Assembly (NCBI GenBank): GCA_028716965.1
Contig: JAQUOV010000009.1
Location: 22,043 to 86,042, forward strand
Reading direction: 5' to 3'
Source of the DNA: Candidatus Omnitrophota bacterium
GTDB taxonomy: Bacteria > Omnitrophota > Gorgyraeia > Gygaellales > Profunditerraquicolaceae
Length of the DNA: 64,000 nucleotides
Shown here: piece after piece, positions 13,710 through 55,065 of the stretch
Position numbering within the stretch: position 1 is the stretch's first letter
Layout: every line of letters begins with the position of its first letter
Notes under the pieces: model-generated
Told to the model about the DNA's origin: nothing
Seen by the model: only the letters and a program-made list of their open reading frames with translations
The model's database searches: none
Program-made: the position numbers and the translations under genes

Positions 13710-14099
13710 CTATTTCTGCAAAACATTTTTTATCGCTTTGATTAACTTTTCAGAATCACAAGGCTTGGTTAGATAGATATCCGCTCCGATAACCCTGCCG
13801 ACAATACGGTCAACATCGGTATCTTTACCGGTCAGCATGATAACCGGAATCTTACTAAAGACGGGGTCCCTGCGGATCTCTTTACAGACCTCTTCGCCAT
13901 TTAACTTAGGAAGCATGATATCCAGGATTACCACGTCGGGATTGTCGCTTTTTATTTTTTTTAATGCCTCCTCCCCGTCAAAAGCGGCAATCACCTCATA
14001 ACCATTGGCCTCCAGCCTGAGTTTGAGAATTTTTAAGAAATCAACCTCATCATCAACAGTAAGGATTTTCTTTTTCTTGCCACCATTGTTATTAGTCAT
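13710..14099 (-). CDS. Single-domain response regulator (CheY-like receiver)
   Basis: 129 aa with the motifs ILTVDDE, phospho-acceptor D in VILDIMLP, and LTGK…KPCD. Confidence 0.85.
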   Translation of the reverse strand: MTNNNGGKKKKILTVDDEVDFLKILKLRLEANGYEVIAAFDGEEALKKIKSDNPDVVILDIMLPKLNGEEVCKEIRRDPVFSKIPVIMLTGKDTDVDRIVGRVIGADIYLTKPCDSEKLIKAIKNVLQK

Positions 14100-14162
14100 T
14101 TTCTTACCCTATGGTTTTCTCATACTGCCTGCGTATTCTCATCCTAAATTATGGAATTCCAG

Positions 14163-14531
14163 CTATCCTATAAACTTTCTTACCTTTTCCAGCAACTCTT
14201 TTGAATCAAAGGGCTTCATTATACAATCATCCGCGCCTATTTCTTTTATTTTTTCGGGCAGGCTAAGCCTGATTGCGCTGGCGGTAAATAAAATAACGGG
14301 GATATTCTTATATTTGTCATCGGATTTCAACTTCCTGCAAAGTTCATCCCCCTGCATCTTAGGCAGGAGCAGATCCAGTAATATTAAATCCGGGGTATCT
14401 TTTTGCAAGATGACTATTGCCTCCTCGGCATCGACTGCAGGTATGATCTCATAGCCTAAGTGCCTCAATCTGACCGTGGCAACCTCCATAATATCCGGTT
14501 CATCATCAACCACAAGGATCATTTTTGCCAT
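14163..14531 (-). CDS. Single-domain response regulator (CheY-like receiver)
   Basis: 122 aa with the motifs ILVVDDEPD, ILLDLLLP and FTAS…KPFD. Confidence 0.85.
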   Translation of the reverse strand: MAKMILVVDDEPDIMEVATVRLRHLGYEIIPAVDAEEAIVILQKDTPDLILLDLLLPKMQGDELCRKLKSDDKYKNIPVILFTASAIRLSLPEKIKEIGADDCIMKPFDSKELLEKVRKFIG

Positions 14532-14532
14532 A

Positions 14533-15918
14533 TCAGGCCCTCCGCTCTTTAATGGGCAATGAAAAATAAAAAGCCGTGCCTTTGCCGAATTCCGATTCTA
14601 CCCAGATCTTCCCCCTGTGCGCTTCTATTATTTTCTTACAGATGGACAGGCCAAGCCCTGTACCACCTACCTTTCTCTGTAATTGCGTAAATTCATGGAA
14701 CAGCTTTGCCATGTTCTCCTCTTTTATACCTATGCCCGTATCTTTAACCATGACTTGAACAAAATTATCCCCCTTAGCGGTACTAATAACAATACCTCCC
14801 TTTTCGGTAAATTTAAGCGCGTTATTTACCAGGTTGGTTAAAACCTGGATTATTTTATCCCTGTCAAAACTGGCCTGCGGGAGGTTCTCGCATAGCCTGA
14901 CCTCAAAAGCCAGCCCCTTCTTCTTAAACAAAAGCATCATGGAATCCTGTATCCCGCTAACTATCTTATTCATATCGCTGTCTTCTATATTGAATTCCAT
15001 CTTCCCGGATTCAAACTTCTGGAAATCTAAGACCGCGCTAATCAACCTGTCCAGCCTGTCCACATTATTCTTAACTATATTTAAGTACTTCTCTTGTTCC
15101 CCGTTAATGTCGCCCGTTATCTTATCCAAAACCACGGATACCCCTTCCTTGATACTGGCCAACGGTGTCCTTAATTCATGGGAAACAATACCGGTAAAAT
15201 CTGACTTTACCCTTACCGCTTCCGTAAGTGCTTCTTCTGCTTTTTTACGCTCGGTGATATCGCGGACGAGGATCAGGGATGCCTGACGGCCGTCCCATTC
15301 GGTCTGGCTGGAGCGGATTTCTCCGATACCCGCCTGGCCGTCCTGACGGATAATGCCGATCTCATTCATCTGTCCGGAAACAACCGCTATGCCAAAACTC
15401 TTGCCTATAAAATCATCCTTATTTACCCCAAAAATGCTCTCCGCGGAAGGATTGCAAAAACAGACTATGCCGTTATTATCCGTCACGATTATCCCATCAG
15501 CAGATTTTTCCACAATATTAAAAAAACTCTGCTTGCTTTTTTCAAGCGCGGCTTTGGCAACCTGCAGCTCTTCTTCCGCACGCTTCCTCTTTATAGACAA
15601 AAATACGGTAATTCCTGCGACACTTGCAAATATGACAATCCTTATCAAGGCCTGCTTGATTACTGACGGGTCTTTTGTAAAAGCAATGATCAGGGCAAAA
15701 TAAATAAACGCGAGGATAACGGAAAAAACAAAGCCTCTCTTTAGATAATACAGGCAGGCAATGATAATCGGGATGTAGAAAAGGTTTTGGAAGATAATGA
15801 ACCAGCCGGATGAAAGACAGTAAATGCTTACGGCAATGGTGGCCAATGTGGTTGCGGCAATTAAAACAAAAGGCGGCCAGCCTGAACGGATATTCTCAGA
15901 AGGCTTAGCGGTATTCAT
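14533..15918 (-). CDS. Sensor histidine kinase (4 TM, PAS, HisKA, HATPase_c)
   Basis: H-box SHELRTPL, N-box NLVNNALKF, G-boxes DTGIGI and GGTGLGLSI, plus an upstream PAS segment. Confidence 0.85.
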   Translation of the reverse strand: MNTAKPSENIRSGWPPFVLIAATTLATIAVSIYCLSSGWFIIFQNLFYIPIIIACLYYLKRGFVFSVILAFIYFALIIAFTKDPSVIKQALIRIVIFASVAGITVFLSIKRKRAEEELQVAKAALEKSKQSFFNIVEKSADGIIVTDNNGIVCFCNPSAESIFGVNKDDFIGKSFGIAVVSGQMNEIGIIRQDGQAGIGEIRSSQTEWDGRQASLILVRDITERKKAEEALTEAVRVKSDFTGIVSHELRTPLASIKEGVSVVLDKITGDINGEQEKYLNIVKNNVDRLDRLISAVLDFQKFESGKMEFNIEDSDMNKIVSGIQDSMMLLFKKKGLAFEVRLCENLPQASFDRDKIIQVLTNLVNNALKFTEKGGIVISTAKGDNFVQVMVKDTGIGIKEENMAKLFHEFTQLQRKVGGTGLGLSICKKIIEAHRGKIWVESEFGKGTAFYFSLPIKERRA

Positions 15919-15926
15919 TAAATAAG

Positions 15927-17141
15927 TTAATACAGGTGGACGACATCTTCCGCATGATGCAACGAAAGGAACAACAACATATACTCCCTTAAATGGCGCG
16001 TTATCAGAAAATTATTCTTTACATGCTCCCGGCCATTCTCTCCCAGTTTCCTGGCGTATGCCGGGCTGCTTAAGAGTTGTTTTATAGCAAAGCTGGCCCC
16101 TTCGATTGAATGACAAAGCAAACCCGAATATTTATGTTTTATCTGTAAGGGAATCCCTCCGACATTTGAAGCTACAACAGGTTTTGCTTTCCATAACGCC
16201 TCTGAAACAGTCAAGCCAAATCCTTCTTTGATAGACTTTTGCACAATTACATCTGAGGCCCTTTGCAACGCGTTGATCTCTATATCATTTTGAGGCAACA
16301 GCAAAATATGAATATCCGGGTCATTCTTGGCTTTTTCCTGAACCTCCTTTAATACTTTAAACCCTTCCGGGTCATCATCCGCGGCTCCTCCGGCCAAGAT
16401 CAGCTGACAATTAATATATTTTTTTACCTGCAGGTATGCTTCAATTACGCCTACCGGGTCTTTCAGGCGGTCAAAACGCGATATCTGCGTGATAATCGGC
16501 TTGTCTTTCTTGATATCGTATTTCTTTAATACCGCATCAATCTTCTCCTGCGGCAATTCTTTATTCTTGTCGCTTAAAGGGTCAATAGAAGGAGAGATCA
16601 GGAATTGCCTGATCGGCAACTTCCGGGAAAAGTCCGGGGCAGAGAATACCGCGGAGTCGTAATGCACTATGAAATCCATAAGAAAATCCCAAGCTTTTTT
16701 ACTGGGGTTAGATACGTCAATATGGCAGCGCCAAATCCATTTATTATCGGCTTTCTTTTTGATCAAGGCTATCGGCTGCGGGTCATGGACAAAAACTATA
16801 TCTCCGTATGTATTGACATTGGCGATATTTTCCTGGCTTGTCTGCATAAATATCTCAAAGTCTCTTTGGGTTATCTCCTCGGGCCTGCCGTGCAAGGCAT
16901 TATGGAACTTCTTGGTTACCCCAAAAAACTGCTCTCCTCCTTTTATAACATCCCATTTCGTGTCTACCCCTAATTCCCTTAACAAAGGCACCATGCGGCT
17001 TAATATCTCCGCCACCCCGCCGCCTACAGGAGTAGAATTTATATGCTGGATGACCTTGCCTTTTAACCGCTCGCCAAGCAACATTAGGTCGTCAATAACC
17101 GCCTGCCCTACCAAAGGTATATATTCTTCTATTTTTGCCAT
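15927..17141 (-). CDS. treT: Trehalose glycosyltransferring synthase TreT (GT4)
   Basis: 404 aa. Strong motif-level similarity to archaeal and bacterial TreT: HINSTPVGGGVAEIL, FFGVTKKFHNAL, VHDPQP…WRCHID, PPSIDPLS, ITQISRFDRLKDP, DDPEG, LQRASDVIVQKSIKEGFGLTVSEALWKAKPVV, NFLITRHLREY. Confidence 0.8.
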   Translation of the reverse strand: MAKIEEYIPLVGQAVIDDLMLLGERLKGKVIQHINSTPVGGGVAEILSRMVPLLRELGVDTKWDVIKGGEQFFGVTKKFHNALHGRPEEITQRDFEIFMQTSQENIANVNTYGDIVFVHDPQPIALIKKKADNKWIWRCHIDVSNPSKKAWDFLMDFIVHYDSAVFSAPDFSRKLPIRQFLISPSIDPLSDKNKELPQEKIDAVLKKYDIKKDKPIITQISRFDRLKDPVGVIEAYLQVKKYINCQLILAGGAADDDPEGFKVLKEVQEKAKNDPDIHILLLPQNDIEINALQRASDVIVQKSIKEGFGLTVSEALWKAKPVVASNVGGIPLQIKHKYSGLLCHSIEGASFAIKQLLSSPAYARKLGENGREHVKNNFLITRHLREYMLLFLSLHHAEDVVHLY

Positions 17142-17813
17142 TTAACCGGTTATCCTTTTTTCAACTGCCTGTATAATCTTATTCCTTAAATCCTCCAAGG
17201 TGCAGGTATAAGGGTCAAATCCGGATATCTTATCCGCTAATTCTTTATCTCCCAGAGAATTTTCTATCCAGTATGAAAAATCATTTGTCGGCTTTTCCAG
17301 CCTAAGGCGCGCTTCAAAGATATGGAAATAAATGGAATCTATGGTGATCTTCTTTAAAACCTCCGCAAATTCCGAGAGGTCATAAACAATATAATTTGTC
17401 GGCAGGATAAAACTTACGGACTTAATAAAATGGAATTCTTCCCCGCTTCTGGCAAACTTCAATTTGGCAAACGGGCTATCCCTTAAATGGTCTTCAATGG
17501 TTAAAGCGATTTTTTCCCGCAGGTCACGGATGGTGGAATATTGCATGGTATCAATACTAACCAGCTTCTCCCCCAGCTCATCCTCTCCGAGAATTTCCGT
17601 TACCCAATAGGCAAAATCATTAGGAGGTTCGGGAGATAGGTATTGATGCTGTTGCAGAAACCTATGAGTATGATGATAGATACATGAACCGGGGACCTCC
17701 TTGATAAATGTTAAGAGCTGGCCCAAAGTAGAGGCACGTAACCCGGTCAGCTCCGAAAGGTGCAGCCTGGTGCAAAACTTAAACGGGTCTTTTGCTCTTA
17801 TTAATTCCGGCAT
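17142..17813 (-). CDS. Conserved hypothetical protein with an internal tandem duplication, TreT-associated
   Basis: 223 aa with two repeats of about 75 aa (NDFAYWVTEILGEDELGEKLVSID…IRDLREKIALTIEDHL and NDFSYWIENSLGDKELADKISGFD…LEDLRNKIIQAVEKRI). It abuts treT with no gap. Confidence 0.5.
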   Translation of the reverse strand: MPELIRAKDPFKFCTRLHLSELTGLRASTLGQLLTFIKEVPGSCIYHHTHRFLQQHQYLSPEPPNDFAYWVTEILGEDELGEKLVSIDTMQYSTIRDLREKIALTIEDHLRDSPFAKLKFARSGEEFHFIKSVSFILPTNYIVYDLSEFAEVLKKITIDSIYFHIFEARLRLEKPTNDFSYWIENSLGDKELADKISGFDPYTCTLEDLRNKIIQAVEKRITG

Positions 17814-17820
17814 AATTTAC

Positions 17821-18612
17821 CTACTTTGAATCCGATATGAAACGCAAAAACCTGGTTACTTCCTTTGTATTTTCCAGATAGTAATCCGCTTCGGAATTAG
17901 CGGGTTTGCCCACAACAACCGTCAACCCCTTGTTTTTTAATGCTTTAAAAGCATCTTCATCGGTAACGTCATCGCCTATGTATACGGGTAGGATCCCGTT
18001 TTTATTCTGCACAAACTTCTGCCTTGCCAAAAGCCACAAAACAACCTTTCCCTTATCCCAGTTCAAGGCAGGCCTTATCTCAAATATCTTCTTCCCCGGC
18101 TTAACCTGGATCTTATTCTTTCCCAAACAGGAAATAACGCTTTCATGAAAAACGCTTTCAATAAAAGCAAGGTGCTCTTTATCAACAAGCCTGAAATGCA
18201 GGACCAGGGATAATTTTTTATCCTCTATAAGAACGCCTTTTATTCCCGAAAGCTTTTCTTTCAGCCTGGCCTTGATACTCTGCAATGTTTCTATATAGCC
18301 GGCAGGCACCGCTAATTCATATTTTAGCTTTGGCCCTTCAATTTGAAAACCGTGTACACCCGAATAAATAATATCATTTAGGCCGACTATCCTCTTCAGG
18401 TCGCCTAAAGACCTTCCGCTGATAATTGCTATCCTGCAGTTATCCTTCTGCGACAGGAGCCTGAGCAATTCTTTTGTTTCCTGGGGGATCTCCACCTTGT
18501 CCGGAGTATTGACAATCGGCGCCAATGTGCCGTCGCAATCAAGAAACAAAAACAGTGATTTGCCCCCGATAGTCTCTTTTATCTTCTTTAAATCATCAAA
18601 AATATAGCGCAT
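17821..18612 (-). CDS. otsB: Trehalose-6-phosphate phosphatase OtsB (HAD family)
   Basis: DCDGTL motif I, SGR motif, and the GDDVTDEDAF motif. Confidence 0.85.
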   Translation of the reverse strand: MRYIFDDLKKIKETIGGKSLFLFLDCDGTLAPIVNTPDKVEIPQETKELLRLLSQKDNCRIAIISGRSLGDLKRIVGLNDIIYSGVHGFQIEGPKLKYELAVPAGYIETLQSIKARLKEKLSGIKGVLIEDKKLSLVLHFRLVDKEHLAFIESVFHESVISCLGKNKIQVKPGKKIFEIRPALNWDKGKVVLWLLARQKFVQNKNGILPVYIGDDVTDEDAFKALKNKGLTVVVGKPANSEADYYLENTKEVTRFLRFISDSK

Positions 18613-18618
18613 CTTCTA

Positions 18619-19674
18619 TCAGGATGCTTTTTCCTGTTCGTAGTTTATCGCCCTTATCGGATAGGGGATATTTATGCCTTCCTGCAAATAGCGCTTATGC
18701 AGCCTCTTGATAAACTCATGCTTGATCAGGTACTGGTCAACAAATTCCTTAGCCCTTAATATTACCGTAAACTTAATGCTGGAATCTCCGAAAGCGTTAT
18801 AGCGGATAAACGGGTCAAAATAGGCCACCCCGCCGCTTACATCCGTCATCACGGATTTTGCCACTTCGCAGGTAATCTTTTCCACTTTTTCCAGGTCGCT
18901 CTTATAATGCACCCCCAGGTCAACTAAAACCGCCATCTCCTTATCCGGCAAATAATAGTTGGTAACAATGATCTTGCTTAATTTATCGTTCGGTATAAGG
19001 ATGAGGTTATTGGGCAACATCTTGATCTTGGTCGAACGCCAATTGATATCAACCACATAGCCTTCTTCGCCGGTTTCCAGTTTAACATAATCTCCTACCC
19101 TTATCTGCTTGGCCACAGTTATATGAAAACCGGCAAACAGGTTTGAGAGGGTATCCTGTAACGCCAAGGCCACTGCCAAGCCCCCCACGCCTAAAGTTGC
19201 CAATACCGGAGTTATGGATATACCTAAACTGTTAAGGATTACCAGCGTGCCGACACAGTAAACAAAGATCCTGGCAATATTCTGGGTAAGAGTGGTGACA
19301 GGCAGGGCAGAATCAATCCGGGAGGCGTAAACTCTTATTACCCCGGACAAAAGGTTTGCTAATGTTAATACTACGGAAATTAAGCCCAGGACAAAGATAC
19401 TCTTGCCCATAACATCCACGATATTGCCTGAAAGATTTGAAAACTGCAACGCAAAATACAAGGCCAGGACCAAACATAAAAACGTAAAAGGGGCCCTCAC
19501 TGCCTGCACAATGACATCATCCAGTTGCGTAGATGTTTTTTTGGCCCAATATGAAAACCGGCTAAAGATTATCTTCTTGACGATAAAGCCTATAGACAAA
19601 ACTACCAAGAAAATGATTAACGGCATGAGTATTTCGGCTAAACCCGCTAATTTTAAAAGTAAATCTTTATTCAT
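18619..19674 (-). CDS. MscS-family mechanosensitive channel
   Basis: 351 aa with 3-4 N-terminal TM helices, a conserved pore helix (…GVGGLAVALALQDTLSNLFAG…) and a C-terminal beta domain. Confidence 0.8.
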   Translation of the reverse strand: MNKDLLLKLAGLAEILMPLIIFLVVLSIGFIVKKIIFSRFSYWAKKTSTQLDDVIVQAVRAPFTFLCLVLALYFALQFSNLSGNIVDVMGKSIFVLGLISVVLTLANLLSGVIRVYASRIDSALPVTTLTQNIARIFVYCVGTLVILNSLGISITPVLATLGVGGLAVALALQDTLSNLFAGFHITVAKQIRVGDYVKLETGEEGYVVDINWRSTKIKMLPNNLILIPNDKLSKIIVTNYYLPDKEMAVLVDLGVHYKSDLEKVEKITCEVAKSVMTDVSGGVAYFDPFIRYNAFGDSSIKFTVILRAKEFVDQYLIKHEFIKRLHKRYLQEGINIPYPIRAINYEQEKAS

Positions 19675-19683
19675 TCATGCCTC

Positions 19684-21981
19684 CTAAGTTATATTCTTTA
19701 AAGCAACCAGCTCGTTAATGATATTAGCGGCCCAGCGGTAAATATTATTTTCAGCTATAACCTTTCGCATATTTTCCATACGCCTCTGCTTTTCTTCTTT
19801 CGGCATCTCGATCGCAAGTTTTATGCTGTCCGCAAACTCCTCGATAGAATAGGGGTTGACTAAGATGGCATCGGTAAGCTCACGGGAGGCGCCGGTAAAC
19901 TGGCTTAAGATCAGGGCCCCGGATAAATCATCCTTCTCTGCCACATATTCTTTAGCCACCAGGTTCATCCCATCATGCAGGGAACTGACAATACAAATAT
20001 CACCAAGCTTATAATAAGGATGGATGTCATCCTGGGAAAAATGTTTTTTAAGGTAGATTATCGGCTTCCAATTCCCGTCTATATGCTTCCAGTTAATCCT
20101 CTCCACCAGCTCGTCAATCTCCCCGCTTAAATCATGGTAACGTTTGATATGCGTACGGCTTGGAGCGGCCAACTGCATAAACACAAATTTCTTTTTATAT
20201 TCAGGATACTTCTCCAGAAACCTGTCTATAGCCAAGATCCTCTCGACTATTCCCTTAGTGTAATCAATCCTGTCTACGCCCACAGCAATAATCTCATCCT
20301 TGAGCTCAAACTCTTTCTTCAGCTTTTCCACCTGCCTTATCGGGTCAACCTTAAATGAACCATCATCAATATGGGCTTTAATGCTTATGGGGAAAGCCCT
20401 GATAAAAGTCTCTTTCCCTAAACGCACGACACTGAATTTCTCTGTGTCTACGCGTGATTCAAGCAGGCGGTTGGCAGTATCAAGAAAATTATTACAATGA
20501 TTTTGTACATGAAAACCGATCAAATCGCATCCCAGCATACCTTCCAGGATTTCATTTTGGTAGGGGCAGATCATAAAAGCCTCCGGAGTAGGCCAGGGGA
20601 TGTGCCAGAATAAGGCAATTTTTGCATCCGGGCGCTTATCTTTTATCATCTTCGGCAAGAGAGTAAAATGATAATCCTGCACAAATATAAAAGGGCTGCT
20701 TGCCGGCAGCTCCTCCAAAACACTATCGGCAAACTTCTGGTTTACTTCCTTATACATGCGCCAGTCAAACTCCCTGAAAACAGGGCGAGTATGCGTATTA
20801 TGGCATAAAGGCCACAGGCCTTCATTTGAGAAACCGTAATAATACCCCTGCTCCTCCTCTTTATTCAACCAAACCCTTTTCAGGATATAGCGGTTATCTT
20901 CCGGCGGCACGCCAAGCTTATCTTTAGAATTAACGAATTTCCTGTCGAAGTTGCCGCTGCCGCTAGCAACCCATGTGCCGCCGCAGGCGGAAAGTATGGG
21001 ATGGAGTGCAGTAACCACTCCGCTTGCCGGCCTTATGCATATAGGCTTGCTCGTGCTCTCATCAAAAATATGCATATACGGCTCCCTGTTGGAAACAACG
21101 AATAATGAATTATCTCCCAACTTTGCGTGGATGAGGTCTTTGAGCTTGGATTCTGTCCAAAGCTCCTCCTTCTGCAGGCGTACATGTGCTTCATCGGATA
21201 TGGTACGGCGGGCCACCCTTATGCTTAAAGCTACCTGCTCTACTTCACTAATAAGCTTTCCAAATTCCCCTTTTTCTTGAAAAGGCTGTAATTTATCAAT
21301 CTCCCCTCTCTGGAAATGCTTAAACCATTGGGTCAGGCGGCGCACGGGAACGATAAAAATCTGCCTCTGGATTAACAGGGCGATCAAGACGATCAACAAA
21401 ATAAGCGTTATGGAGGTTACGCTTATTTTCCTCCATAATTCAGTTAAGGTAGCAAACATGTAAGAGGTATCATAAATTACCTCCACCATCCCTAATACGT
21501 TTCCTTCATCATCCAGAACGGGCAAAATATAACTATATACGGAATATTCTTTAAATTTCTCCAAAGCTCCGCGGGGCTTCTTCAAAGACAGGATATCCTT
21601 AAGATAGGGCCTGTCTCTCTGTTTAAAGTCAGAAAAACGTTCGGTAATAGCTAATATCTGACCGTCCTTATCATAAATGACGCAGCCCTGCAGCCTTTCC
21701 CTTTTCTGGAAACTATCGACTAAACGGTTGGCTTGCTTTAAATCGTTATTAATAAGTATATATTTGGCGGATAATTCCAGGCTTTCATCCACAGACCTGG
21801 CTTTTCTTTTCAGATCATCCATCAGCTTGTCTTCGGTAAAACGGGCCTGCATAATACCCGAGATAGCGAATCCAAGCGCAACCAGGATTAATATCGGAAG
21901 GATAAAAAGAAGGATTCTTTTCATTAATTGATCTCCAAAAAACAGCCACCTGATTATTAAATCAGATGGCGGCCCAACCAT
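19684..21981 (-). CDS. otsA: Sensor-fused trehalose-6-phosphate synthase: TM, Cache-like periplasmic domain, TM, HAMP, OtsA (GT20)
   Basis: The C-terminal 480 aa or so carries GT20 OtsA motifs (LWPLCH, FWHIPWP, DLIGFH, VDRIDYTKG, SLHDGMNLVAKEY). The N-terminal 280 aa has two TM helices flanking a Cache-like segment (YSYILPVLDDEGNVLGMVEVIYD) and a HAMP-like helix. The likely true start is the Met at about 21924 (GGAG RBS, MKRILLFILPILIL). The first 19 codons of the track ORF are probably not translated. Confidence 0.85.
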   Translation of the reverse strand: MVGPPSDLIIRWLFFGDQLMKRILLFILPILILVALGFAISGIMQARFTEDKLMDDLKRKARSVDESLELSAKYILINNDLKQANRLVDSFQKRERLQGCVIYDKDGQILAITERFSDFKQRDRPYLKDILSLKKPRGALEKFKEYSVYSYILPVLDDEGNVLGMVEVIYDTSYMFATLTELWRKISVTSITLILLIVLIALLIQRQIFIVPVRRLTQWFKHFQRGEIDKLQPFQEKGEFGKLISEVEQVALSIRVARRTISDEAHVRLQKEELWTESKLKDLIHAKLGDNSLFVVSNREPYMHIFDESTSKPICIRPASGVVTALHPILSACGGTWVASGSGNFDRKFVNSKDKLGVPPEDNRYILKRVWLNKEEEQGYYYGFSNEGLWPLCHNTHTRPVFREFDWRMYKEVNQKFADSVLEELPASSPFIFVQDYHFTLLPKMIKDKRPDAKIALFWHIPWPTPEAFMICPYQNEILEGMLGCDLIGFHVQNHCNNFLDTANRLLESRVDTEKFSVVRLGKETFIRAFPISIKAHIDDGSFKVDPIRQVEKLKKEFELKDEIIAVGVDRIDYTKGIVERILAIDRFLEKYPEYKKKFVFMQLAAPSRTHIKRYHDLSGEIDELVERINWKHIDGNWKPIIYLKKHFSQDDIHPYYKLGDICIVSSLHDGMNLVAKEYVAEKDDLSGALILSQFTGASRELTDAILVNPYSIEEFADSIKLAIEMPKEEKQRRMENMRKVIAENNIYRWAANIINELVALKNIT

Positions 21982-22099
21982 CTTAAAAATTACCTCCGGA
22001 GACTATAGGCTATCTCCAGACCGCTTATTAATCTGTATTTATTATACTACTTTCAATTAATACCTCAAGAGGTATCTTGGATTATAGGTAATTACAGTA

Positions 22100-23137
22100 T
22101 CAAATCGATCCGGCCTTATTCATTTCAATACGTATCCGCGGCAGGCTCTCCGGAAAACGCTGCTGTAAAAACTCAAGCAATTTTTCCCTGACTTCGCAAC
22201 GCAGATCCCACATGGTAGGAGAATCCCCCGCGCTCATCAAGGCGCGCAGCTCAACTGTTTTATCAGTGGCGTTGGTAACCTGCAGCACATTTACCTTTTT
22301 ATCCCATTTCGGGCTGTTCTCCAGGATGCGCGTTAATTCATTACGCACTTCTTTGACTGGAACGCTATAGTCGGTATAAATAAAAACCGTCCCCAGTAAA
22401 TCCGCCGAAGTGCGCGTCCAATTCTGGAATGGCTTTTCAAGGAAATACGATATCGGCACCACCAGGCGCCGCAGGTCCCATATCCGCACTACCACAAAAG
22501 TCAAAGTGATCTCCTCAATCCACCCCCATTCATCCTCTATAATTACCACATCATCCAGACGGATTGGCTGGGCTATGGCTATCTGGATACCGGCGATAAA
22601 ATTACCCAGTGTCTTCTGGGCAGCAAAACCTATAACTATACCGACAACCCCCGCGGAAGCCAATATGCTCACGCCTATATGCTTGACCTGCGGGAAGCTT
22701 ATCAAGATAAAAGAAATAGTCAGCAAGACTATGACCACGACTAAGATATTTGATATCACGCGCATCTGCGTATGCATGCTGCGGGCACGTATATTGTCAG
22801 GCGTATTTATATTGTAACGCTTAAGAAGCGCATCGCGAAAGATGTAAACAACCTTAATGACAAGCCAACCAAACAACGCAATAAACAAAAGATGCATAAA
22901 GTTAGCGATAAATAAACGTGTCTTCGCCGGTATCTTCAATAGAGGCAAAACTGCTGAAACGCAGAAAGCGGGCATTAAAAAACGCAACGGGCTTTTAAGC
23001 AACGCCAGGTTAACTTCAAGCAATTTTGAAGACAGGCTACCTCTCCGCTTGATGAGAAATACGGCAATTAGATAAAATACCCAACCGAGAATAAAACCGG
23101 AGGCTATTAAAATACCAGAAAACATATAATCATCCAT
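22100..23137 (-). CDS. MscS-family mechanosensitive channel (second copy)
   Basis: 345 aa with a conserved MscS pore region (…VGIVIGFAAQKTLGNFIAGIQIAIAQPIRLDD…). Confidence 0.75.
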   Translation of the reverse strand: MDDYMFSGILIASGFILGWVFYLIAVFLIKRRGSLSSKLLEVNLALLKSPLRFLMPAFCVSAVLPLLKIPAKTRLFIANFMHLLFIALFGWLVIKVVYIFRDALLKRYNINTPDNIRARSMHTQMRVISNILVVVIVLLTISFILISFPQVKHIGVSILASAGVVGIVIGFAAQKTLGNFIAGIQIAIAQPIRLDDVVIIEDEWGWIEEITLTFVVVRIWDLRRLVVPISYFLEKPFQNWTRTSADLLGTVFIYTDYSVPVKEVRNELTRILENSPKWDKKVNVLQVTNATDKTVELRALMSAGDSPTMWDLRCEVREKLLEFLQQRFPESLPRIRIEMNKAGSI

Positions 23138-23154: not shown

Positions 23155-24495
23155 TTATTTACCTATAGCGGTTATTTTACCAGGGGGCATCCGGCGGACG
23201 GAAAGGTTATTTTCCCGCCCGCTATATTTTACCAGCCGCCTTGATTTAGGTTTGGAAGAAGAGTGGGAAAAGAACCTAAAGTTGGTCCAGTATTCTACTC
23301 CCGGCTTAAAACGTGATAAACCTGCCACTTGCTGGGCCTTAAACAATAGTATGCTGACAAATAAAATAAAAACCGGCAGGATAAACAGCAGGCGCCTGAA
23401 CAGAAATCGCCCTTCCTGCTTCAACCCGATTATGCAGGGGAAAATACCAAAGAGCATTACCACGCCTATGCCTCCGACAAAATCAAGCGCGCTAAGGAAT
23501 ATATTCGGATAGATGAGGGCAATGACCAAAGGAGGCATGAAAGAAAGAGCCATGGTCAACCTCCTGTCCTTTAGCTTAATAAAATTTACTGTAATGTCAT
23601 CGATAAAATCCATCGTGGTATTGCCGAAAGATAAGTAGGAAGTGATAATAGCCATGAGGGCGAAAAAAAGCGAGAGAGGATAGAATAAGCGTATCTTTAT
23701 TGCCTGGGCCAAAGGCACGGTGGCCGGCAGATTATTAGAAAGCGCGTTTGTAATACCGTTATTGCCCGATAGCGGCAATACCCCGATGCCGACCTGTATC
23801 CATAATGAATTCATGATAAAACCGATAAGCGTACCGATAGATATGGCCAAGAATACCCTCTTAAAATTCCAATCCAAATGTTTGCAGACAGTCGGTATGA
23901 TATTGTGAAAATTCGCCGCCATTACGATAATCGGAAGCGCTGCCGGCAGCATTGCCCAATCAACGTGCTGGAAACGCTGGGGGACTACGTATCTTTCACC
24001 CATTAAGACGATAGCTATAAAAGAAAGCAGTAATAACCCCACAAATAAAGCATTACATTTAAGAAGCGCCCTGGGGTTAGCTATAGTGATCGCTGTCACA
24101 GGCAGGAAGAATAATAATATGACTAATTCCCTGGAAATATGTATATTCGTAAACCTGACGATAATAGCAGTGGCGCCGGTAATATATACTACCAGCGAAC
24201 CATAAAGGATGATCAGGTTAGCCAGAGTAGCTATCCATTGCCCGCAGGGACCGAAATACTGCCGATACATGCTCGGATAATGGAATACTTCCTGGTGCGT
24301 CCTTACCGCCTCTTTCCCCAGTATGAAAGCGGTCAAAAACATAGCGCAGCTTATTGCAAAAGTCCCAACCAGGGAAGGCAACAGCCCTGCGGGACCGGTC
24401 TTGATAGGAAGCCCTAAAATCCCTGCGCCTATAAGATTACCCGTTATAAAACAAGTAACCATTATTACGAGGGAAAAGGAAATTTTTTTATTCAT
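23155..24495 (-). CDS. Amino-acid permease of the HAAAP (Trp/Tyr/Ser permease) type
   Basis: 446 aa with 11 TM helices. The N-terminal GNLIGAGILGLP motif is typical of TnaB/Mtr/TyrP-type permeases. It has an unusual basic C-terminal tail. Confidence 0.65.
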   Translation of the reverse strand: MNKKISFSLVIMVTCFITGNLIGAGILGLPIKTGPAGLLPSLVGTFAISCAMFLTAFILGKEAVRTHQEVFHYPSMYRQYFGPCGQWIATLANLIILYGSLVVYITGATAIIVRFTNIHISRELVILLFFLPVTAITIANPRALLKCNALFVGLLLLSFIAIVLMGERYVVPQRFQHVDWAMLPAALPIIVMAANFHNIIPTVCKHLDWNFKRVFLAISIGTLIGFIMNSLWIQVGIGVLPLSGNNGITNALSNNLPATVPLAQAIKIRLFYPLSLFFALMAIITSYLSFGNTTMDFIDDITVNFIKLKDRRLTMALSFMPPLVIALIYPNIFLSALDFVGGIGVVMLFGIFPCIIGLKQEGRFLFRRLLFILPVFILFVSILLFKAQQVAGLSRFKPGVEYWTNFRFFSHSSSKPKSRRLVKYSGRENNLSVRRMPPGKITAIGK

Positions 24496-25195
24496 TTATA
24501 ACAGGGTCATGCCTGGCTGCCGAGAATATCCTGCTGATAGCGTCCTCCTTGGCATAGCAGATTAACTCATCGTCTACCTTAAGGACAACATCTCCATGCG
24601 GAGCGCCGATGAATACTGTTTTTTTGCCTTCTTTACGATAAATAGCTAAAATAAGCACCCCTTCCAGCTACATCTTTAAGTCTTTTATTGACTTCTCACT
24701 GCAGGGGTTATCCTTTTTTACGGTAATCTTTGCTATCGCGTAGCCCTCTCCTAAGCCAAACAACTGCTCGTAATCATAAATGCGCAAGGTCGTCCATTTT
24801 TCAAGTGCCTTGGTAATCACAACCTTCATCACATTGTAAATATATTTTGAGCGGGCAAGGATAAAAATACACAACAGCCCTGATAATAATACTTCTCCTC
24901 TTACAAGAACGCTCTTGCCTGTCAAGCCTACGAATGCCAATACGAGCGTTGCGATGGCAGTAGTCACTCCTGCGCTGCCCCAAAGAATAAGGATTTTTAT
25001 AATACGCCTGCGCACGGGATGCGTAACAATAGCCTCGGATTCAACGGTAGTAAAACCAGCCCCCGAGAACGCCGACTGAGCCTGGAAAGAAGCTATTTCG
25101 GAAGATAAACCGGTAAGCTCTAAAGCAATAGCGCCTATCCTGACTACGATAATTGAGAGTATAATAATTATTAGTAAACTAAATAAAGCGATCAT
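24488..25195 (-). pseudogene. Membrane protein with C-terminal RCK_C (TrkA-C) domain interrupted by an in-frame TAG (24668-24670)
   Basis: The track ORF 24668-25195 ends …YDYEQLFGLGEGYAIAKITVKKDNPCSEKSIKDLKM then TAG. The same frame continues LEGVLILAIYRKEGKKTVFIGAPHGDVVLKVDDELICYAKEDAISRIF…, completing a canonical RCK_C domain. The final stop overlaps the ATG of the downstream permease (ATGAATAA). Confidence 0.55.
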
Positions 25196-25292: not shown

Positions 25293-26294
25293 TCAATTGA
25301 GTAATGCCTCCACAGAGGATAAGATTTGCAGGATCGATTTCTTCTTATTAGGAATATAGCAGCCCGCTATATCAAAATGCCCTCCGCCTTTGTATTCCTG
25401 CGCAACCTTGCCTATATTAATATCGCCTTTGGACCTTAAGCTTACTCTTAATGTCTTGCTATCCTTTTCCCTGAATAATACCGCGATCTCAATCCTCTTC
25501 ATGGAATTCATTTCGTTTGCTATCGGGTCAGCATCATAAACTTTTCCCCCGACCATGGCAATGTCCCTGCTCCTTAGCATTGACCAGATGATCCTTCCTT
25601 TTTTCAGGAATTTAGCCCTCAATAAAGAAATAGCCAATAGCATCATACTTTCTTTTGTCCTTGAACCATAAACCTTATCTACCAGTTGAGAAAAATTTAT
25701 CCCCTCTTTCAACAGTTGCGCGCATATTTTAAAGGTAACAGGCCTGATCTGCGTCAATTTGAATAAATTAGTTTCCACAATTACCGAAGTAAGAAGATTT
25801 TCGGCTATCTCCCGGTTTATTTTAATATTTAATTTTCTTAAAAGAAAGAACACCAATTCACCCACGGCAACTGCCTTGTAATCGACAATCTGCATATCGC
25901 CGAAAGGTACTCTGAATTCATGATGGTCTATCTCAAGTACGGATTTTGCTTTTTTGAATACCGGGATATTCTTACCCAAAAGACCGATAATACTGCAATC
26001 AACGGCTATTGCCAAATCCACTCTCTTCCTTGTTGTCCTGACTATACGCTCTGCGCCGGGCAGAGACCTGTAGCTTGGAGGTATTTCGTCCTGGCATAGC
26101 ATATATACCTTCTTGCCAAGGCCGCTCAAAGCCAGCCCCAGCGCCAGAAGCGAACCTATTGAATCGCCGTCCGGATAGACGTGGCCGGAGATAGCTATGC
26201 TATTTGCCTTCAGTATCTTCTGCCGGATATTTTTAAAACCCTTCATATGCTTTTTCGGCGTTTCGCCAGGCTGTTTATATCTTTTCAACCTCAA
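25293..26294 (-). CDS. DHH/DHHA1 phosphoesterase (NrnA/DhhP-like; candidate c-di-AMP and nanoRNA phosphodiesterase)
   Basis: DHH motifs (ISGHVYPDGDSIGS, DHH in EIDHHEF) and a DHHA1 GGGH motif. It overlaps the cdaA fusion gene by about 20 nt, and an internal Met may be the true start. Confidence 0.8.
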   Translation of the reverse strand: MRLKRYKQPGETPKKHMKGFKNIRQKILKANSIAISGHVYPDGDSIGSLLALGLALSGLGKKVYMLCQDEIPPSYRSLPGAERIVRTTRKRVDLAIAVDCSIIGLLGKNIPVFKKAKSVLEIDHHEFRVPFGDMQIVDYKAVAVGELVFFLLRKLNIKINREIAENLLTSVIVETNLFKLTQIRPVTFKICAQLLKEGINFSQLVDKVYGSRTKESMMLLAISLLRAKFLKKGRIIWSMLRSRDIAMVGGKVYDADPIANEMNSMKRIEIAVLFREKDSKTLRVSLRSKGDINIGKVAQEYKGGGHFDIAGCYIPNKKKSILQILSSVEALLN

Positions 26295-27729
26295 TAGTTA
26301 TTTTTACATCAGGAGGCTTATCTCCTGGAAAACGGACCTCCGCCGGGATAATGAGCTTGGGGGTTATAGTTGCTGTTTCTGTTATTGACCTTAATTCAAC
26401 AGGCTCTGTTGCAATGAAGATTCTTTTTAAATCTACCGTATCGGGGACCTTAACCAATACCTCCTGAGGTTCAACCTTTATCTCCTTAATATTGACTCCG
26501 GAAGGCGCGCGGCCATTCGTCTTTATCTGTACGGGGACACTGGCGGATATCATCTTATATAATTTGATCGGAATCTCCTTCGGCTCTATATTGACCAGAG
26601 AAAGCCCGGCGGGCTTGCGTACCATATCCTTATCCAGATAATATTTCCCTTCCCCTTCTTCAATCTTTGACATATCCATGGATAGCTTAAGCTCTTTAGG
26701 GTCAAGAAGGCTGAAAGCCCGTTCCGAACCGCTCAGGGTAATGGTTACATCCTTAGGTTTCGTCTCGCTGATTATCCTGTCCTGGGCAAGATTACGGTAT
26801 TCGACCGGGATGACAAAGTCGCGGCGGATCGTTTCCGTGCGGTGCCCAAATGCCAGCCATAGAGCAGAGACCAGAATGACAGCAATAATCTTTTCCGGGA
26901 AATGCCCTTTTAAAAAATTCATCGAGAGCACTTTATGTTTTGCAGGAAATTTCTCTCTATAGAACTTCTCTAAAATATTACGCACTTTTCCGATATCCTC
27001 TAATTGCGTTATCTTGCCATCTTCTGCTACCGAAATCGTACCCCGTTCCTCTGAAATAACAATACAGAGCGCGTCTGTGCGCTCGGCAAGGCCTAATGCG
27101 GCGGCATGACGCGTACCTAAATGCCCAACCTCTTCTATATTTGTAGAAAGAGGCAGGTGGCAGCCAAACATGGCAAGCCGCGTTCCCTCAATAATAACCG
27201 CTCCATCATGACTTGGGCTGTTGGGTTCAAAGATACTCTCGATCAGCATCTGGCTCAGCAGTGCATCTGAACGTATCCCCGTTACAAGATAACGGTCCAA
27301 TGGGTCCTGTCCCTGCACGACAATTAAAGCGCCGATTTTCTTACGCGAAAGGTTGGCCAGTCCGCTGGTTAACATAGCAATTCCATGGTCTTGTGAAGAA
27401 ACTGACGGGCTGCGTCGCGCTATTCCCCAAATAGCTATCCGCTCAAAAAAATGGCGGAAATCATCCTGGAAGATAACTACAATCATAATAAGAAAAATGG
27501 CAAAGAACGCCTGAAACACCATAGTAGTCAGATAGAGGCCGAAAAAACGCGCTAAAATATAAATAAAACCCAATATAATCATCCCCATCATGATAAAGCG
27601 CACTCGCGCTTTCTCAAGCCAGACCAGGATTATATAAACAAAGATGGATATAATGCTTATATCGATAAAATCGACAAATCTGAATGTCTGGAAGAATTCC
27701 GCAATCTTTTCAAGTATTTTAGCAACCAT
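26275..27729 (-). CDS. cdaA: Diadenylate cyclase CdaA fused to a YbbR/CdaR-like domain
   Basis: N-terminal 3 TM helices, then a DAC domain (DGAVII, GTRHAAALG). This is followed by a TM segment and a C-terminal region of about 220 aa with YbbR-like beta repeats. Confidence 0.8.
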   Translation of the reverse strand: MVAKILEKIAEFFQTFRFVDFIDISIISIFVYIILVWLEKARVRFIMMGMIILGFIYILARFFGLYLTTMVFQAFFAIFLIMIVVIFQDDFRHFFERIAIWGIARRSPSVSSQDHGIAMLTSGLANLSRKKIGALIVVQGQDPLDRYLVTGIRSDALLSQMLIESIFEPNSPSHDGAVIIEGTRLAMFGCHLPLSTNIEEVGHLGTRHAAALGLAERTDALCIVISEERGTISVAEDGKITQLEDIGKVRNILEKFYREKFPAKHKVLSMNFLKGHFPEKIIAVILVSALWLAFGHRTETIRRDFVIPVEYRNLAQDRIISETKPKDVTITLSGSERAFSLLDPKELKLSMDMSKIEEGEGKYYLDKDMVRKPAGLSLVNIEPKEIPIKLYKMISASVPVQIKTNGRAPSGVNIKEIKVEPQEVLVKVPDTVDLKRIFIATEPVELRSITETATITPKLIIPAEVRFPGDKPPDVKITIEVEKI

Positions 27730-27780: not shown

Positions 27781-28594
27781 GGTTTTATCATATCACATTA
27801 AAAACTATATCATTCTCAACTCCCGCTGCAAAAATGGAAACAACGCCTCCGCTTGCGCTTGCTTTAATGGCATTACTCAATAAATTTACCAGAATACGCA
27901 AAAGCAACGAATAATCGGTATAGAAATCTTTCGGCAGCAGCTGCAAGTGCTATTCCAGCGCAATCTTCTGATTATTCGCGTATACAGAGACCATTTCCAG
28001 TGACGAAGCGATTGCCGTATCTATATCCGTATTTTTTATCCCCAACGGCATTCTTTTGGATTCCAGGCAAGACAGATCAAGAATCGAATTAATAAGCACC
28101 TGCCCTCTTTGCGCCGCGATCTTGCAAATAGTTGCCATCTCTTTCTGCGTTTTGTCCAAAGAAGTAAAATCTTCCAGATTGTTAACGACTGATGAAATCG
28201 CGCTCATCGGGACGCGTAAGTCATGAATTATAAAATTTATAAAATCTTCACGCGTCTCCTGGGAACTGCGGATCTTGAATATGAATAACGCGAATATTGT
28301 AAAAACTATAAACCTGATACTGCCGTTCCAAATAAAAATATATGCGGAAGAATAAAAATGCCCCGAAAAGATATTTATAAAAGCCCAGGCGAAGATGCTT
28401 ATTAAAGACGCAAAAATCCCCAAAGATAAACTGCCATACCAGGCCATTATCCCTATCGGCAGGAGATAGAATATAAAAAATTGAAGCTCAATACCGGTTA
28501 TATAATCCAGAAACCCGATTATACATATCAATACTAAAGCCAGTATAAAATAATATTTATGAATTATTGCTTTCAAGGCACGGTCTATTTTCAT
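27781..28594 (-). pseudogene. Histidine-kinase remnant: DUF4118-like membrane domain plus HisKA, an in-frame TAG at 27950-27952, and the HATPase N-box only
   Basis: FLDYITGIELQFFIFYLLPIGIMAWYG (KdpD-type DUF4118) and H-box HDLRVPMSAI. After the TAG the frame continues HLQLLPKDFYTDYSLLLRILVNLLSNAIKASASGGVVSIFAAGVENDIVFNVI then TGA TAA. The G1 and G2 boxes are absent. Confidence 0.6.
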
Positions 28595-52982: not shown

Positions 52983-53942
52983 TTATTTCACAGCATCCAG
53001 TGATTTAATATATTTGTAATAATCGCTGTCCGTTGTCAGGATCACCGTGGATTTGGCGTCAATGGTATGCTTATAAGTCTCAAGGGTCTTCATAAAGGAA
53101 TAAAAATCGGGGTTCTGGCTGTATGCGGCAGCGTATATGTTGATCGCCTCGGCATCCGCCTTACCGGTAATAATCTGCGCCTGCCGGTAAGCCTCCGAAG
53201 TAATCGCCTTTAATTCTTTGGCTACCTGCCCTTCTATTTCGGCAGATTTGCCCTGCCCCTCGGAACGGTATTTCTCCGCGGCGCGCTTTCTTTCGGCGAT
53301 CATACGGTCATAGACTTTATTACGCACGTCCTCCACGTAATTTATGCGTTTGATGCGCACATCAATGATCTCAATGCCGTATTGGGGGGCAAGCACCTTT
53401 GCCTTCTCTAAAATGACCCCCTCCAGCATTTTCCTGCCTACTTCAATGTGTTCCAGCGCCTCATCCGTAACGATCATATCCTCGCCATCTACCCTGGACT
53501 CCAGGATACGGTTAGAATCCCTCACCGCTTCTACCAGGAGATGACTGGTGATAACGTCACGGGTGGCGGAATTGATGATATCATCGAGCCTGCCCTGGGC
53601 GCTCATTTCGTTGCCTACCGACTGCAGGAATTTCAAGGCGTCAACGATCTTCCAGCGGGCGGTAGCATCCACCCAGATATATTTTTTGTCTTTAGTAGGT
53701 ATCTGGTTGGGGTCGCCGTCCCAATCCAGGAGCCTTTTGTCAAAATAATGCGCCTGTTGAATTAACGGCTGTTTGAAATGCAGGCCCGCCGAGGTAATCG
53801 GATCGCCCACCGGCCTTCCGAATTGCGTAATCACCGCCTGCTGCCCTTCACTGATTATATATACAGCGCCGAAGGCAAAAGAAGCGCCTACAACAATGAA
53901 TAGTACGGCAAAAATAGTGATCGTCAAACGTAACGCTTTCAT
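52983..53942 (-). CDS. hflC: HflC (SPFH/band-7 protease modulator)
   Basis: N-terminal TM, SPFH domain, and a C-terminal …NPDFYSFMKTLETY…DSDYYKYIK signature shared with HflC. Confidence 0.85.
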   Translation of the reverse strand: MKALRLTITIFAVLFIVVGASFAFGAVYIISEGQQAVITQFGRPVGDPITSAGLHFKQPLIQQAHYFDKRLLDWDGDPNQIPTKDKKYIWVDATARWKIVDALKFLQSVGNEMSAQGRLDDIINSATRDVITSHLLVEAVRDSNRILESRVDGEDMIVTDEALEHIEVGRKMLEGVILEKAKVLAPQYGIEIIDVRIKRINYVEDVRNKVYDRMIAERKRAAEKYRSEGQGKSAEIEGQVAKELKAITSEAYRQAQIITGKADAEAINIYAAAYSQNPDFYSFMKTLETYKHTIDAKSTVILTTDSDYYKYIKSLDAVK

Positions 53943-54969: not shown

Positions 54970-55002
54970 AAAAAACCGCCTTCTACCTTCGTAGATGGCG
55001 GC
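54970..55002 (-). terminator. Intrinsic terminator (GCCGCCAUCUAC…GUAGAAGGCGG plus U6) located 30 nt upstream of the hflK start and downstream of the 14-codon upstream ORF
   Basis: The stem has one mismatch and is followed by UUUUUU. It also serves as the terminator for the GT4 gene. Confidence 0.5.
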
Positions 55003-55020
55003 CCGACCATCAGATTGCCT

Positions 55021-55065
55021 TCAGAAATACAAATTATCTCTGAACCCAAAATATTTTATTTTCAT
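55021..55065 (-). CDS. Candidate 14-aa leader peptide MKIKYFGFRDNLYF with an AAGAGGAG RBS
   Basis: ATG at 55063-55065 preceded by AAGAGGAG. 5 of 14 residues are Phe or Tyr. It sits between a sigma70-like promoter and the terminator. Confidence 0.3.
   Translation of the reverse strand: MKIKYFGFRDNLYF

Follow-up and report, generated by a model that had tools for sequence, protein, structure and literature searches.

The locus

The window analysed here, that is, the whole stretch of 64,000 nucleotides taken from contig JAQUOV010000009.1 of a Candidatus Omnitrophota bacterium (assembly GCA_028716965.1, positions 22,043 to 86,042), carries a gene in which a diadenylate cyclase of the CdaA type is fused to a YbbR (CdaR-like) module. 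It is followed by a gene for a stand-alone DHH-DHHA1 phosphoesterase (dhh below) and by genes for an RCK_C-containing membrane protein, mechanosensitive channels and trehalose synthesis. The substantial open reading frames (ORFs) of the window all lie on the minus strand. The cyclase and phosphoesterase features, in window positions and with residue numbers of the encoded proteins, are as follows:

26275 to 27729, minus strand: cdaA-ybbR fusion gene, ATG start, 484 amino acids, with CdaA_N, the diadenylate cyclase (DAC) domain, a fourth transmembrane helix (TM4) and two YbbR domains
27460 to 27690, minus strand: CdaA_N, three transmembrane helices (TM1-3), residues 14-90; Pfam PF19293, 24.4 bits against a cutoff of 23.8
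27013 to 27363, minus strand: DAC catalytic domain, residues 123-239; Pfam PF02457, E 2.5e-38; HDGA, GTRHAAA and SEER motifs
26842 to 26901, minus strand: TM4, residues 277-296, Kyte-Doolittle hydropathy 1.75, joining the DAC domain to the YbbR part
26563 to 26811, minus strand: YbbR domain 1, residues 307-389; Pfam PF07949, E 6e-10 to 8e-9
26278 to 26538, minus strand: YbbR domain 2, residues 398-484; Pfam PF07949, E 2.8e-4 with the C-terminal part scanned alone
25293 to 26246, minus strand: stand-alone DHH-DHHA1 phosphoesterase gene, 317 amino acids from a conserved ATG; Pfam DHH E 3e-12, DHHA1 (PF02272) E 2e-14

Architecture and fold of the fused cyclase

A preliminary description of this DNA, made from its letters alone, had placed a DAC domain and YbbR-like repeats in a single polypeptide, separated by a transmembrane segment. 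Pfam, the NCBIfam model TIGR00159, hydropathy and AlphaFold/Foldseek comparisons agree with that arrangement: the 484-residue protein is a CdaA-type cyclase with a CdaR-like module (a transmembrane helix plus YbbR domains) at its C-terminus. Its reading frame is uninterrupted, and a public protein named [quoted passage not shown] is 100% identical to it. The fusion passes the CdaA equivalog cutoff of TIGR00159 narrowly (191.7 bits versus 188.8). PDB sequence searches with the DAC domain return CdaA/DacA at E 1e-29, and the DAC part superposes on CdaA/DacA crystal structures with a TM-score of 0.92 and 36-41% identity in Foldseek. The full-length AlphaFold2 model is confident for both the DAC and the YbbR parts.

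The YbbR-bearing part spans ~187 residues and contains two repeats, so that the repeats announced earlier are present while the length of about 220 residues given for them was too large. The AlphaFold2 model of residues 298-484 has a predicted local distance difference test (pLDDT) value of 91.5, and its best PDB fold match is 4qdy (SP_1560, E 2e-9), over both domains. It is followed by 3lyw (TM-score 0.82), 2kpu, 5hqh (lmo2119) and 2l3u, which establishes the C-terminal region as YbbR-like. Taken separately, YbbR domain 1 matches the folds of 3lyw, 2kpu and 2l3u. YbbR domain 2 scores 21.6 bits in Pfam when the C-terminal part is scanned alone, under the cutoff of 22.3; it has a profile match to 2kxy, and the two-domain match of 4qdy spans both repeats. 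We take SP_1560 to be the CdaR of S. pneumoniae and lmo2119 that of L. monocytogenes. Beyond the YbbR structures, the next fold matches are ribosomal protein L25/CTC, a kinship of the YbbR fold that is already known (PMC10636490).

Hydropathy analysis delineates four hydrophobic segments, at residues ~21-38, 45-62, 66-87 and 277-296, of which the fourth separates the DAC and YbbR parts. The loop between TM1 and TM2 is rich in Lys and Arg, in agreement with an N-out, DAC-in topology. TM4 is modelled as a helix (277-294) in the full-length structure and is conserved in the 28 fused homologues that were aligned for residue conservation. Judging from the helix count, the DAC domain would follow TM1-3 on the cytoplasmic side, and TM4 would return the chain so that the YbbR pair resides in the periplasm.

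The protein thus combines what the CdaA-CdaR(-GlmM) systems of Firmicutes (B. subtilis, L. monocytogenes lmo2120/lmo2119, S. aureus DacA/YbbR) distribute over two proteins. Three N-terminal helices and a DAC domain are shared with their cyclases, and one helix followed by YbbR domains with their CdaR, as reflected in the fold matches to SP_1560 and lmo2119. The differences are that the regulator lies in cis at the C-terminus of the cyclase, whereas it is encoded by the next gene in Firmicutes, that an RHA motif replaces RHR, and that two YbbR repeats are present against three to four in Firmicutes CdaR (four in B. subtilis, PMC10636490). No glmM gene was seen among the genes examined.

Cyclase motifs

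The DGA and RHA motifs pointed out at the start are found as HDGA at residues 174-177 and GTRHAAA at 205-211. All 28 homologues keep HDGA, LPLS, SEE and, within the GxRHRxA signature, its first Arg and its His. Where the signature has its second Arg, the window protein and at least 90% of these homologues have Ala, while every solved CdaA/DacA has RHR. This substitution might mean that the DAC domain is catalytically impaired and that the protein acts as a scaffold or a sensor. The arginine found essential in the CdaA of Leptospira is, however, the first one, R203 (PMC12974146), and its counterpart is kept in the fusion as R207. The invariance of the other signature residues and the TIGR00159 score likewise argue against impairment. 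In addition, scans with GTRHAA[AG]LG or a second pattern matched at least 600 stretches, with 496 confirmed relatives in species-level genomes, and the RHA variant is therefore probably common and strongly conserved. Loss of catalysis is accordingly a very unlikely explanation, and the fused cyclase is probably active, as predicted from its motifs.

Distribution of the fusion

Two separate, neighbouring genes encode CdaA and CdaR/YbbR in Firmicutes, spirochaetes and Chlamydia (PMC8316131, PMC12974146, PMC12422730, PMC10636490), and the fusion had first been presented as a peculiarity. It turns out to be a widespread architecture in two phyla, already annotated as CdaA and not new in itself. 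A search of 5.8 billion proteins returned at least 120 clusters at 90% identity, nearly all full length and 50-84% identical to the window protein; nearly all of the listed clusters carry precomputed DAC and YbbR matches, and their named sources are mostly Omnitrophota. A profile of the YbbR pair, run against 1.84 billion representatives at 50% identity, matched 2,263 proteins at E<=1e-10. Among the best 150 of these, 79 are proteins of 460-525 residues with N-terminal CdaA_N and DAC domains, giving at least 79 fused clusters at this identity, and 15 more are partial copies of the same architecture. Scanning one genome per GTDB species yielded 80 loci with the full-length fusion, whose labels (L003, L005 and so on) are used below. 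About 20 of them are from Omnitrophota (47-82% identity), and about 60 from Syntrophales, Syntrophaceae, Smithella and other "Deltaproteobacteria" metagenome-assembled genomes (MAGs; 40-48% identity). The searchable full-text literature gave no account of the fusion or of its linkage to trehalose genes, a published census of DAC architectures lying outside that search.

As the contig is part of a MAG, and in-frame stops occur in two genes neighbouring the fusion, one could suspect that separate cdaA and cdaR genes were joined by an assembly or frameshift error. Such a join has next to no chance of being the explanation: hundreds of independent assemblies, drawn from several sources, show the uninterrupted architecture, 478-497 residues long, which rules it out. 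In TM4 and around the start of YbbR domain 1 (motif RRDFxxPxEYRNL), R303, D304, P308, E310, Y311 and R312 are invariant in the 28 homologues. Together with the invariant catalytic residues, they indicate that the fused module is under purifying selection.

To note, 24 of the ~60 Syntrophales-type loci have a gene for a CorA Mg2+/Co2+ channel (YGMNF motif) downstream of the fusion, in the same orientation and often as its immediate neighbour (L057 5690-6757, L075 9467-10528, L039 9592-10659). This hints at a possible link between c-di-AMP (cyclic di-AMP) and magnesium in that lineage.

The downstream DHH-DHHA1 phosphoesterase

The longest-ORF call for dhh (25293 to 26294, minus strand) uses a TTG start and gives a 20-nt overlap with cdaA-ybbR, which was taken at first as genuine. 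All 10 aligned Omnitrophota orthologues start at a Met matching the ATG at 26246, and this conserved start leaves a gap of 28 nt and no overlap. Among relatives, the two genes are -4 to ~20 nt apart, and such distances fit co-transcription.

A stand-alone DHH-DHHA1 enzyme with a GGGH motif had been recognised in the preliminary description, and the two Pfam domains confirm it; its nearest solved relatives are phosphodiesterases of pApA or c-di-AMP. A PDB search places TmPDE (TM1595) first (E 1e-31), followed by Rv2837c (CnpB) and NrnA (E 7e-25), and a GdpP-type chain deposited as "Cyclic-di-AMP phosphodiesterase" (9n0l) matches weakly (E 1e-10). An identity with GdpP was rejected, the 317 residues holding DHH and DHHA1 only and no TM-PAS-degenerate GGDEF region. 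The orthologues are 51-80% identical and keep the DxD, D, DHH, RSK and GGGH motifs. In the alignment of the window protein with the 10 orthologues and TmPDE, the conserved stretches are GHxxPDGDS, VDC, IDHH, RSKG and GGGH, the window reading GGGHFDIAG.

With its ~317 residues, its two domains and its motifs, the protein resembles TmPDE, Rv2837c/CnpB, Pde2/DhhP and NrnA, and differs from them at motif IV. There, the Asp (D154 of TmPDE) is replaced by Glu (IVETNLF) in 11 of the 11 aligned Omnitrophota sequences. In the TmPDE sequence of PDB 5o4z, position 154 is Asn, one of two mutated residues. The Glu could ligate a metal, and its presence throughout the alignment apparently marks a distinct conserved clade and not a decaying gene. 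We know of no characterised stand-alone DHH-DHHA1 enzyme whose gene directly follows a cyclase gene.

The protein may instead be a housekeeping nanoRNase/pAp phosphatase resembling NrnA, whose position would reflect operon hitch-hiking or the final pApA-to-AMP step only. NrnA and TmPDE, among its nearest solved relatives, do prefer linear dinucleotides. Moreover, dhh is lost or decayed in five loci that keep cdaA-ybbR and the trehalose genes (L003, L009, L005, L010, L014), and one locus without it has a PgpH-like protein in the vicinity. Against this, 12 of 23 Omnitrophota loci, spread over the clade, have dhh right next to the fusion on the same strand, at a distance of -4 to 28 nt, and a different DHH protein also follows the fusion in a distant genome. 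Furthermore, the score against the NrnA equivalog model NF053633 is 97.9 bits for a cutoff of 350, which rules out NrnA orthology by the NCBIfam standard. The NrnA-type label given earlier therefore holds as far as relatedness in the PDB search goes, while the low score and the Glu in motif IV set the protein apart. Hence a purely housekeeping role seems rather unlikely, and the protein is probably a pApA/c-di-AMP phosphodiesterase, to be regarded as putative.

Pfam scans, covering 53 of the 57 large ORFs of the window, found no GdpP, PgpH, AtaC or PII-like protein. Elsewhere, a DHH-family protein of another kind (345 residues, L026 8713-9750) follows a distant fusion (43% identity, in a MAG labelled Actinomycetes), and its motif IV also reads Glu-Thr (SETKNL). 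One Omnitrophota locus that lacks dhh encodes, 8 kb upstream of cdaA-ybbR and within a phoH-ybeY cluster, a PgpH-like 7TMR-HD protein (L084 836-2005), which could be an alternative c-di-AMP phosphodiesterase.

The osmoadaptation island

From the distal end of dhh onwards, the minus strand continues with the following features:

24488 to 25195, minus strand: membrane protein with a C-terminal RCK_C (TrkA_C) domain, in-frame TAG at 24668-24670, starting 97 nt after dhh
23155 to 24495, minus strand: amino-acid transporter of the Trp/Tyr-permease family (Pfam)
22100 to 23137, minus strand: MscS-type mechanosensitive channel (Pfam)
21945 to 22023, minus strand: nhaA-I (Li+/Na+) riboswitch and terminator; aptamer 21964-22023, intrinsic terminator 21945-21970
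19684 to 21924, minus strand: otsA, trehalose-6-phosphate synthase (GT20) with an N-terminal transmembrane helix and a Cache sensor domain
18619 to 19674, minus strand: second MscS-type channel, inside the trehalose operon (Pfam)
17821 to 18612, minus strand: otsB
17142 to 17813, minus strand: DUF5752 (E 2e-68)
15927 to 17141, minus strand: treT
13710 to 15918, minus strand: PAS histidine kinase and two single-domain response regulators, end of the operon-like block

Within the two blocks, the genes are spaced by 0-17 nt, with two wider gaps, one of 97 nt following dhh and one of 63 nt in front of the last response regulator. The distance of 1 kb that had been stated between the cyclase-phosphoesterase pair and the trehalose/MscS/RCK_C locus is thus an overestimate, the TAG-interrupted RCK_C gene being the next one.

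RCK_C is a classical c-di-AMP-binding domain. In the window gene, 59 sense codons follow the TAG, and read-through would give the TrkA_C/RCK_C domain (E 1e-7). The family, of ~229 residues, is widespread in Omnitrophota, and the window copy is a truncated outlier. Its orthologues in three loci are 79-84% identical to it, a better conservation than that of CdaA-YbbR. The N-terminal membrane part has no Pfam, NCBIfam or PDB match; its SGAGFTT stretch gives the impression of a TrkH/KtrB pore loop. The protein is a candidate c-di-AMP receptor, probably inactive in the window genome. It shares the TrkA_C/RCK_C domain with the c-di-AMP-binding proteins KtrA/KtrC, CpaA and KhtT, and differs from them in its membrane part without a Pfam family and in its TAG-truncated gene.

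Just upstream of cdaA-ybbR, a histidine kinase gene (27788-28594, minus strand) looks like a remnant, with an in-frame TAG at 27950-27952 after the HisKA domain; the 53 codons past this TAG encode the start of HATPase_c (LLRILVNLLSNAIKAS...) before a premature end. Recoding of TAG was considered and rejected: TAG is the normal stop of 13 of the 57 genes, and the RCK_C orthologues of L003 and L016 have Gln (CAG) or His at the corresponding position. The in-frame TAGs at 24668 and 27950 are taken to be nonsense mutations or sequencing errors.

The nhaA-I aptamer in front of otsA (RF03057) scores 37.7 bits for a gathering score of 37. The terminator stem shares the 3' arm of the second helix (P2) of the aptamer, and a promoter-like site (TTGAGG-16-TATAAT) lies upstream (region 21945-22068). 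Together, these elements look like a transcriptional ON switch. The true start of otsA is probably the ATG at 21924 and not at 21981. The Cache part of OtsA gives sub-threshold Pfam matches to dCache_1 and sCache_3_2, suggesting a ligand-sensing synthase; the OtsA orthologues of L005, L007 and L016 align from residue 270 on and seem to be devoid of the transmembrane/Cache part. DUF5752 is found directly upstream of treT in the window and in every related locus with treT, and after otsB where otsB is present, so that it looks like an obligatory partner of TreT.

Conservation of the linkage across Omnitrophota

The proteins of the window were compared by tblastn with the retrieved loci, and three further contigs were inspected; the counts below refer to 23 distinct Omnitrophota loci. 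The otsA/otsB/DUF5752/treT cassette, whole or in part, lies within 8-10 kb of cdaA-ybbR and on the same strand in 11 of these 23 loci; several of the loci without trehalose genes are contigs too short to judge the linkage. The dhh gene directly follows cdaA-ybbR on the same strand in 12 of the 23, and decayed remnants of it are found at this very place in L003 (5255-5350) and L009 (9463-9674), which apparently show a recent decay of the phosphodiesterase gene. What is new at this locus, neither point having turned up in the searchable literature, is the conservation of a Glu-variant DHH gene beside the cyclase gene and the repeated linkage of both to a trehalose/MscS/RCK_C island.

This linkage is kept in at least six distinct gene orders. 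The cassette is located upstream of cdaA-ybbR in L008, L009 and L013, and downstream in L003, L005, L010, L014 and the window. In L020, cdaA-ybbR and dhh sit between otsAB and DUF5752-treT, and in L006 they are followed by DUF5752-treT alone. An MscS gene is adjacent in L007, L010 and L014, directly before cdaA-ybbR in the first and between cdaA-ybbR and otsA in the last. L003, L005 and L016 have the RCK_C gene as a neighbour, directly before or after cdaA-ybbR in the first two. The trio of a kinase and two response regulators also adjoins cdaA-ybbR in L007, and nhaA-I riboswitches precede otsA in L003 (6054-6114, with another at 2366-2426) and an MscS-like gene in L008 (302-358). In a rough neighbour-joining tree of the fusion proteins, linked and unlinked loci are interleaved over the whole tree, which suggests that the linkage is ancestral and was retained despite rearrangements, apart from some losses.

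In a distant Omnitrophota locus (L021 9442-11310), the gene overlapping the end of cdaA-ybbR resembles, on visual inspection, a TreZ-type glycoside hydrolase. If it is TreZ (malto-oligosyltrehalose trehalohydrolase), it would be another trehalose-pathway neighbour.

A probable c-di-AMP module within an osmoadaptation island

c-di-AMP governs K+ and osmolyte homeostasis (PMC10636490, PMC6108528), and we consider it rather likely that the locus represents a make-and-break module for this messenger built into an osmoadaptation island. CdaR acts via the transmembrane domain of CdaA, and its YbbR domains are extracytoplasmic (PMC8316131, PMC10636490). By analogy, the YbbR/TM4 module would probably modulate the cyclase by packing against TM1-3, and any signal would have to pass through this packing. 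The fusion would fix the cyclase:regulator ratio at 1:1, making the protein a single-chain receptor cyclase. The diderm Chlamydia trachomatis offers a parallel: there, DacA requires YbbR for its activation, and the relative amounts of the two proteins are important (PMC12422730). Its dacA-ybbR operon consists of two separate genes without an annotated phosphodiesterase, whereas the genes are fused here and followed by a DHH-DHHA1 gene. The DHH enzyme would most likely degrade pApA and possibly c-di-AMP, so that the pair could set the c-di-AMP level. c-di-AMP, in turn, would most likely coordinate trehalose build-up, solute release by MscS and RCK_C-dependent ion flux when osmolarity changes.

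Several observations weigh against this reading. The membrane region of the full-length model has pLDDT values of 48-70, too low to support a packing of TM4 on TM1-3. The cyclase departs from the RHR of all solved enzymes, and the DHH protein departs from TmPDE at motif IV, scores far under the NrnA cutoff and could be a general nanoRNase. The RCK_C gene adjoining dhh is broken in the window genome. Rfam scans of the window and 10 related loci detected no c-di-AMP (ydaO-type) riboswitch at the gathering threshold. dhh is absent from ~9 of the 23 Omnitrophota loci and the trehalose cassette from about half, and the Syntrophales homologues have neither dhh nor trehalose genes nearby. Finally, the reading reaches beyond the observed architecture, fold, conservation and synteny to the topology, the cyclase and phosphodiesterase activities, the direction of regulation and the c-di-AMP targets, all of which we infer.

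Part of these observations would also suit another view, in which the co-localisation reflects inherited synteny or shared transcriptional control (riboswitch, histidine kinase and response regulators), the cyclase serving general envelope or K+ homeostasis without any target in the island. The linked loci all belong to one phylum and the linked state looks ancestral; the Syntrophales homologues, often placed before corA, do without the linkage. No c-di-AMP riboswitch was found in the loci scanned, and a promoter-like site and a Li+/Na+ riboswitch of its own precede the otsA block. On the other hand, the linkage has survived at least six gene orders, with cdaA-ybbR upstream, downstream or inside the cassette, a pattern typically left when proximity is selected for. 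By a rough estimate that assumes one cassette and genomes of 2-3 Mb, fewer than ~1% of loci should have the cassette within 10 kb by chance, and 11 of 23 are observed. The RCK_C protein, too, belongs to the island neighbourhood. On balance, synteny or transcriptional control without a c-di-AMP target is somewhat unlikely. The early idea that the whole region is one osmoregulatory block is in keeping with the linkage preserved in many Omnitrophota and with the Li+/Na+ riboswitch before otsA, and is weakened by the truncated RCK_C gene.

Within the reading of a make-and-break module, a more specific proposal can be put forward tentatively, as one that may well turn out wrong: Omnitrophota c-di-AMP would directly govern compatible-solute synthesis and release, beyond uptake. 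A receptor cyclase with its YbbR in cis, the sensor lying on the C-terminal side of the catalytic domain and communicating with it solely by helix packing within the membrane, would sense the periplasm or envelope, a dedicated Glu-variant DHH enzyme would oppose it, and the product would bind the RCK_C protein, Cache-OtsA, TreT/DUF5752 or MscS, switching the cell from accumulating trehalose to releasing it or back. The osmoregulatory effects known for c-di-AMP concern mainly transporters of K+ and osmolytes, and the island suggests that the messenger may also control compatible-solute synthesis. It points, in an uncultured phylum, to a small set of possible receptors. The natural occurrence of the fusion in hundreds of species bears on the control of CdaA by CdaR/YbbR in Firmicutes and Chlamydia and on the question of what YbbR senses: it argues, in the manner of a Rosetta stone, that both proteins work as one unit in a 1:1 ratio, and it offers a single-chain construct for structural and biochemical studies.

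Trehalose-channel units and the Li+/Na+ riboswitch

The msc-gt-tpsp genes of Thermoproteus tenax associate trehalose synthesis and an MscS-type channel in one transcription unit, combining solute build-up and emergency release (PMC3634074). The Omnitrophota island shares this association. It is bacterial, and differs by its two synthesis routes (Cache-OtsA/OtsB and TreT/DUF5752), its Li+/Na+ riboswitch, its two-component system and its c-di-AMP genes.

The riboswitch before otsA belongs to the nhaA-I (Li+-I / Na+-II) class, RF03057, with a match barely above threshold. Members of this class are occasionally found with trehalose-6-phosphate synthase genes, and Na+-dependent osmotic regulation was suggested by their discoverers (PMC9646797). 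A second and stronger nhaA-I match in the window (50.5 bits, 54993-55047, minus strand), in a pairing that is not among the cation-transporter associations we have seen described for this class, lies upstream of the tandem SPFH/Band 7 genes 53945-54940 and 52983-53942.

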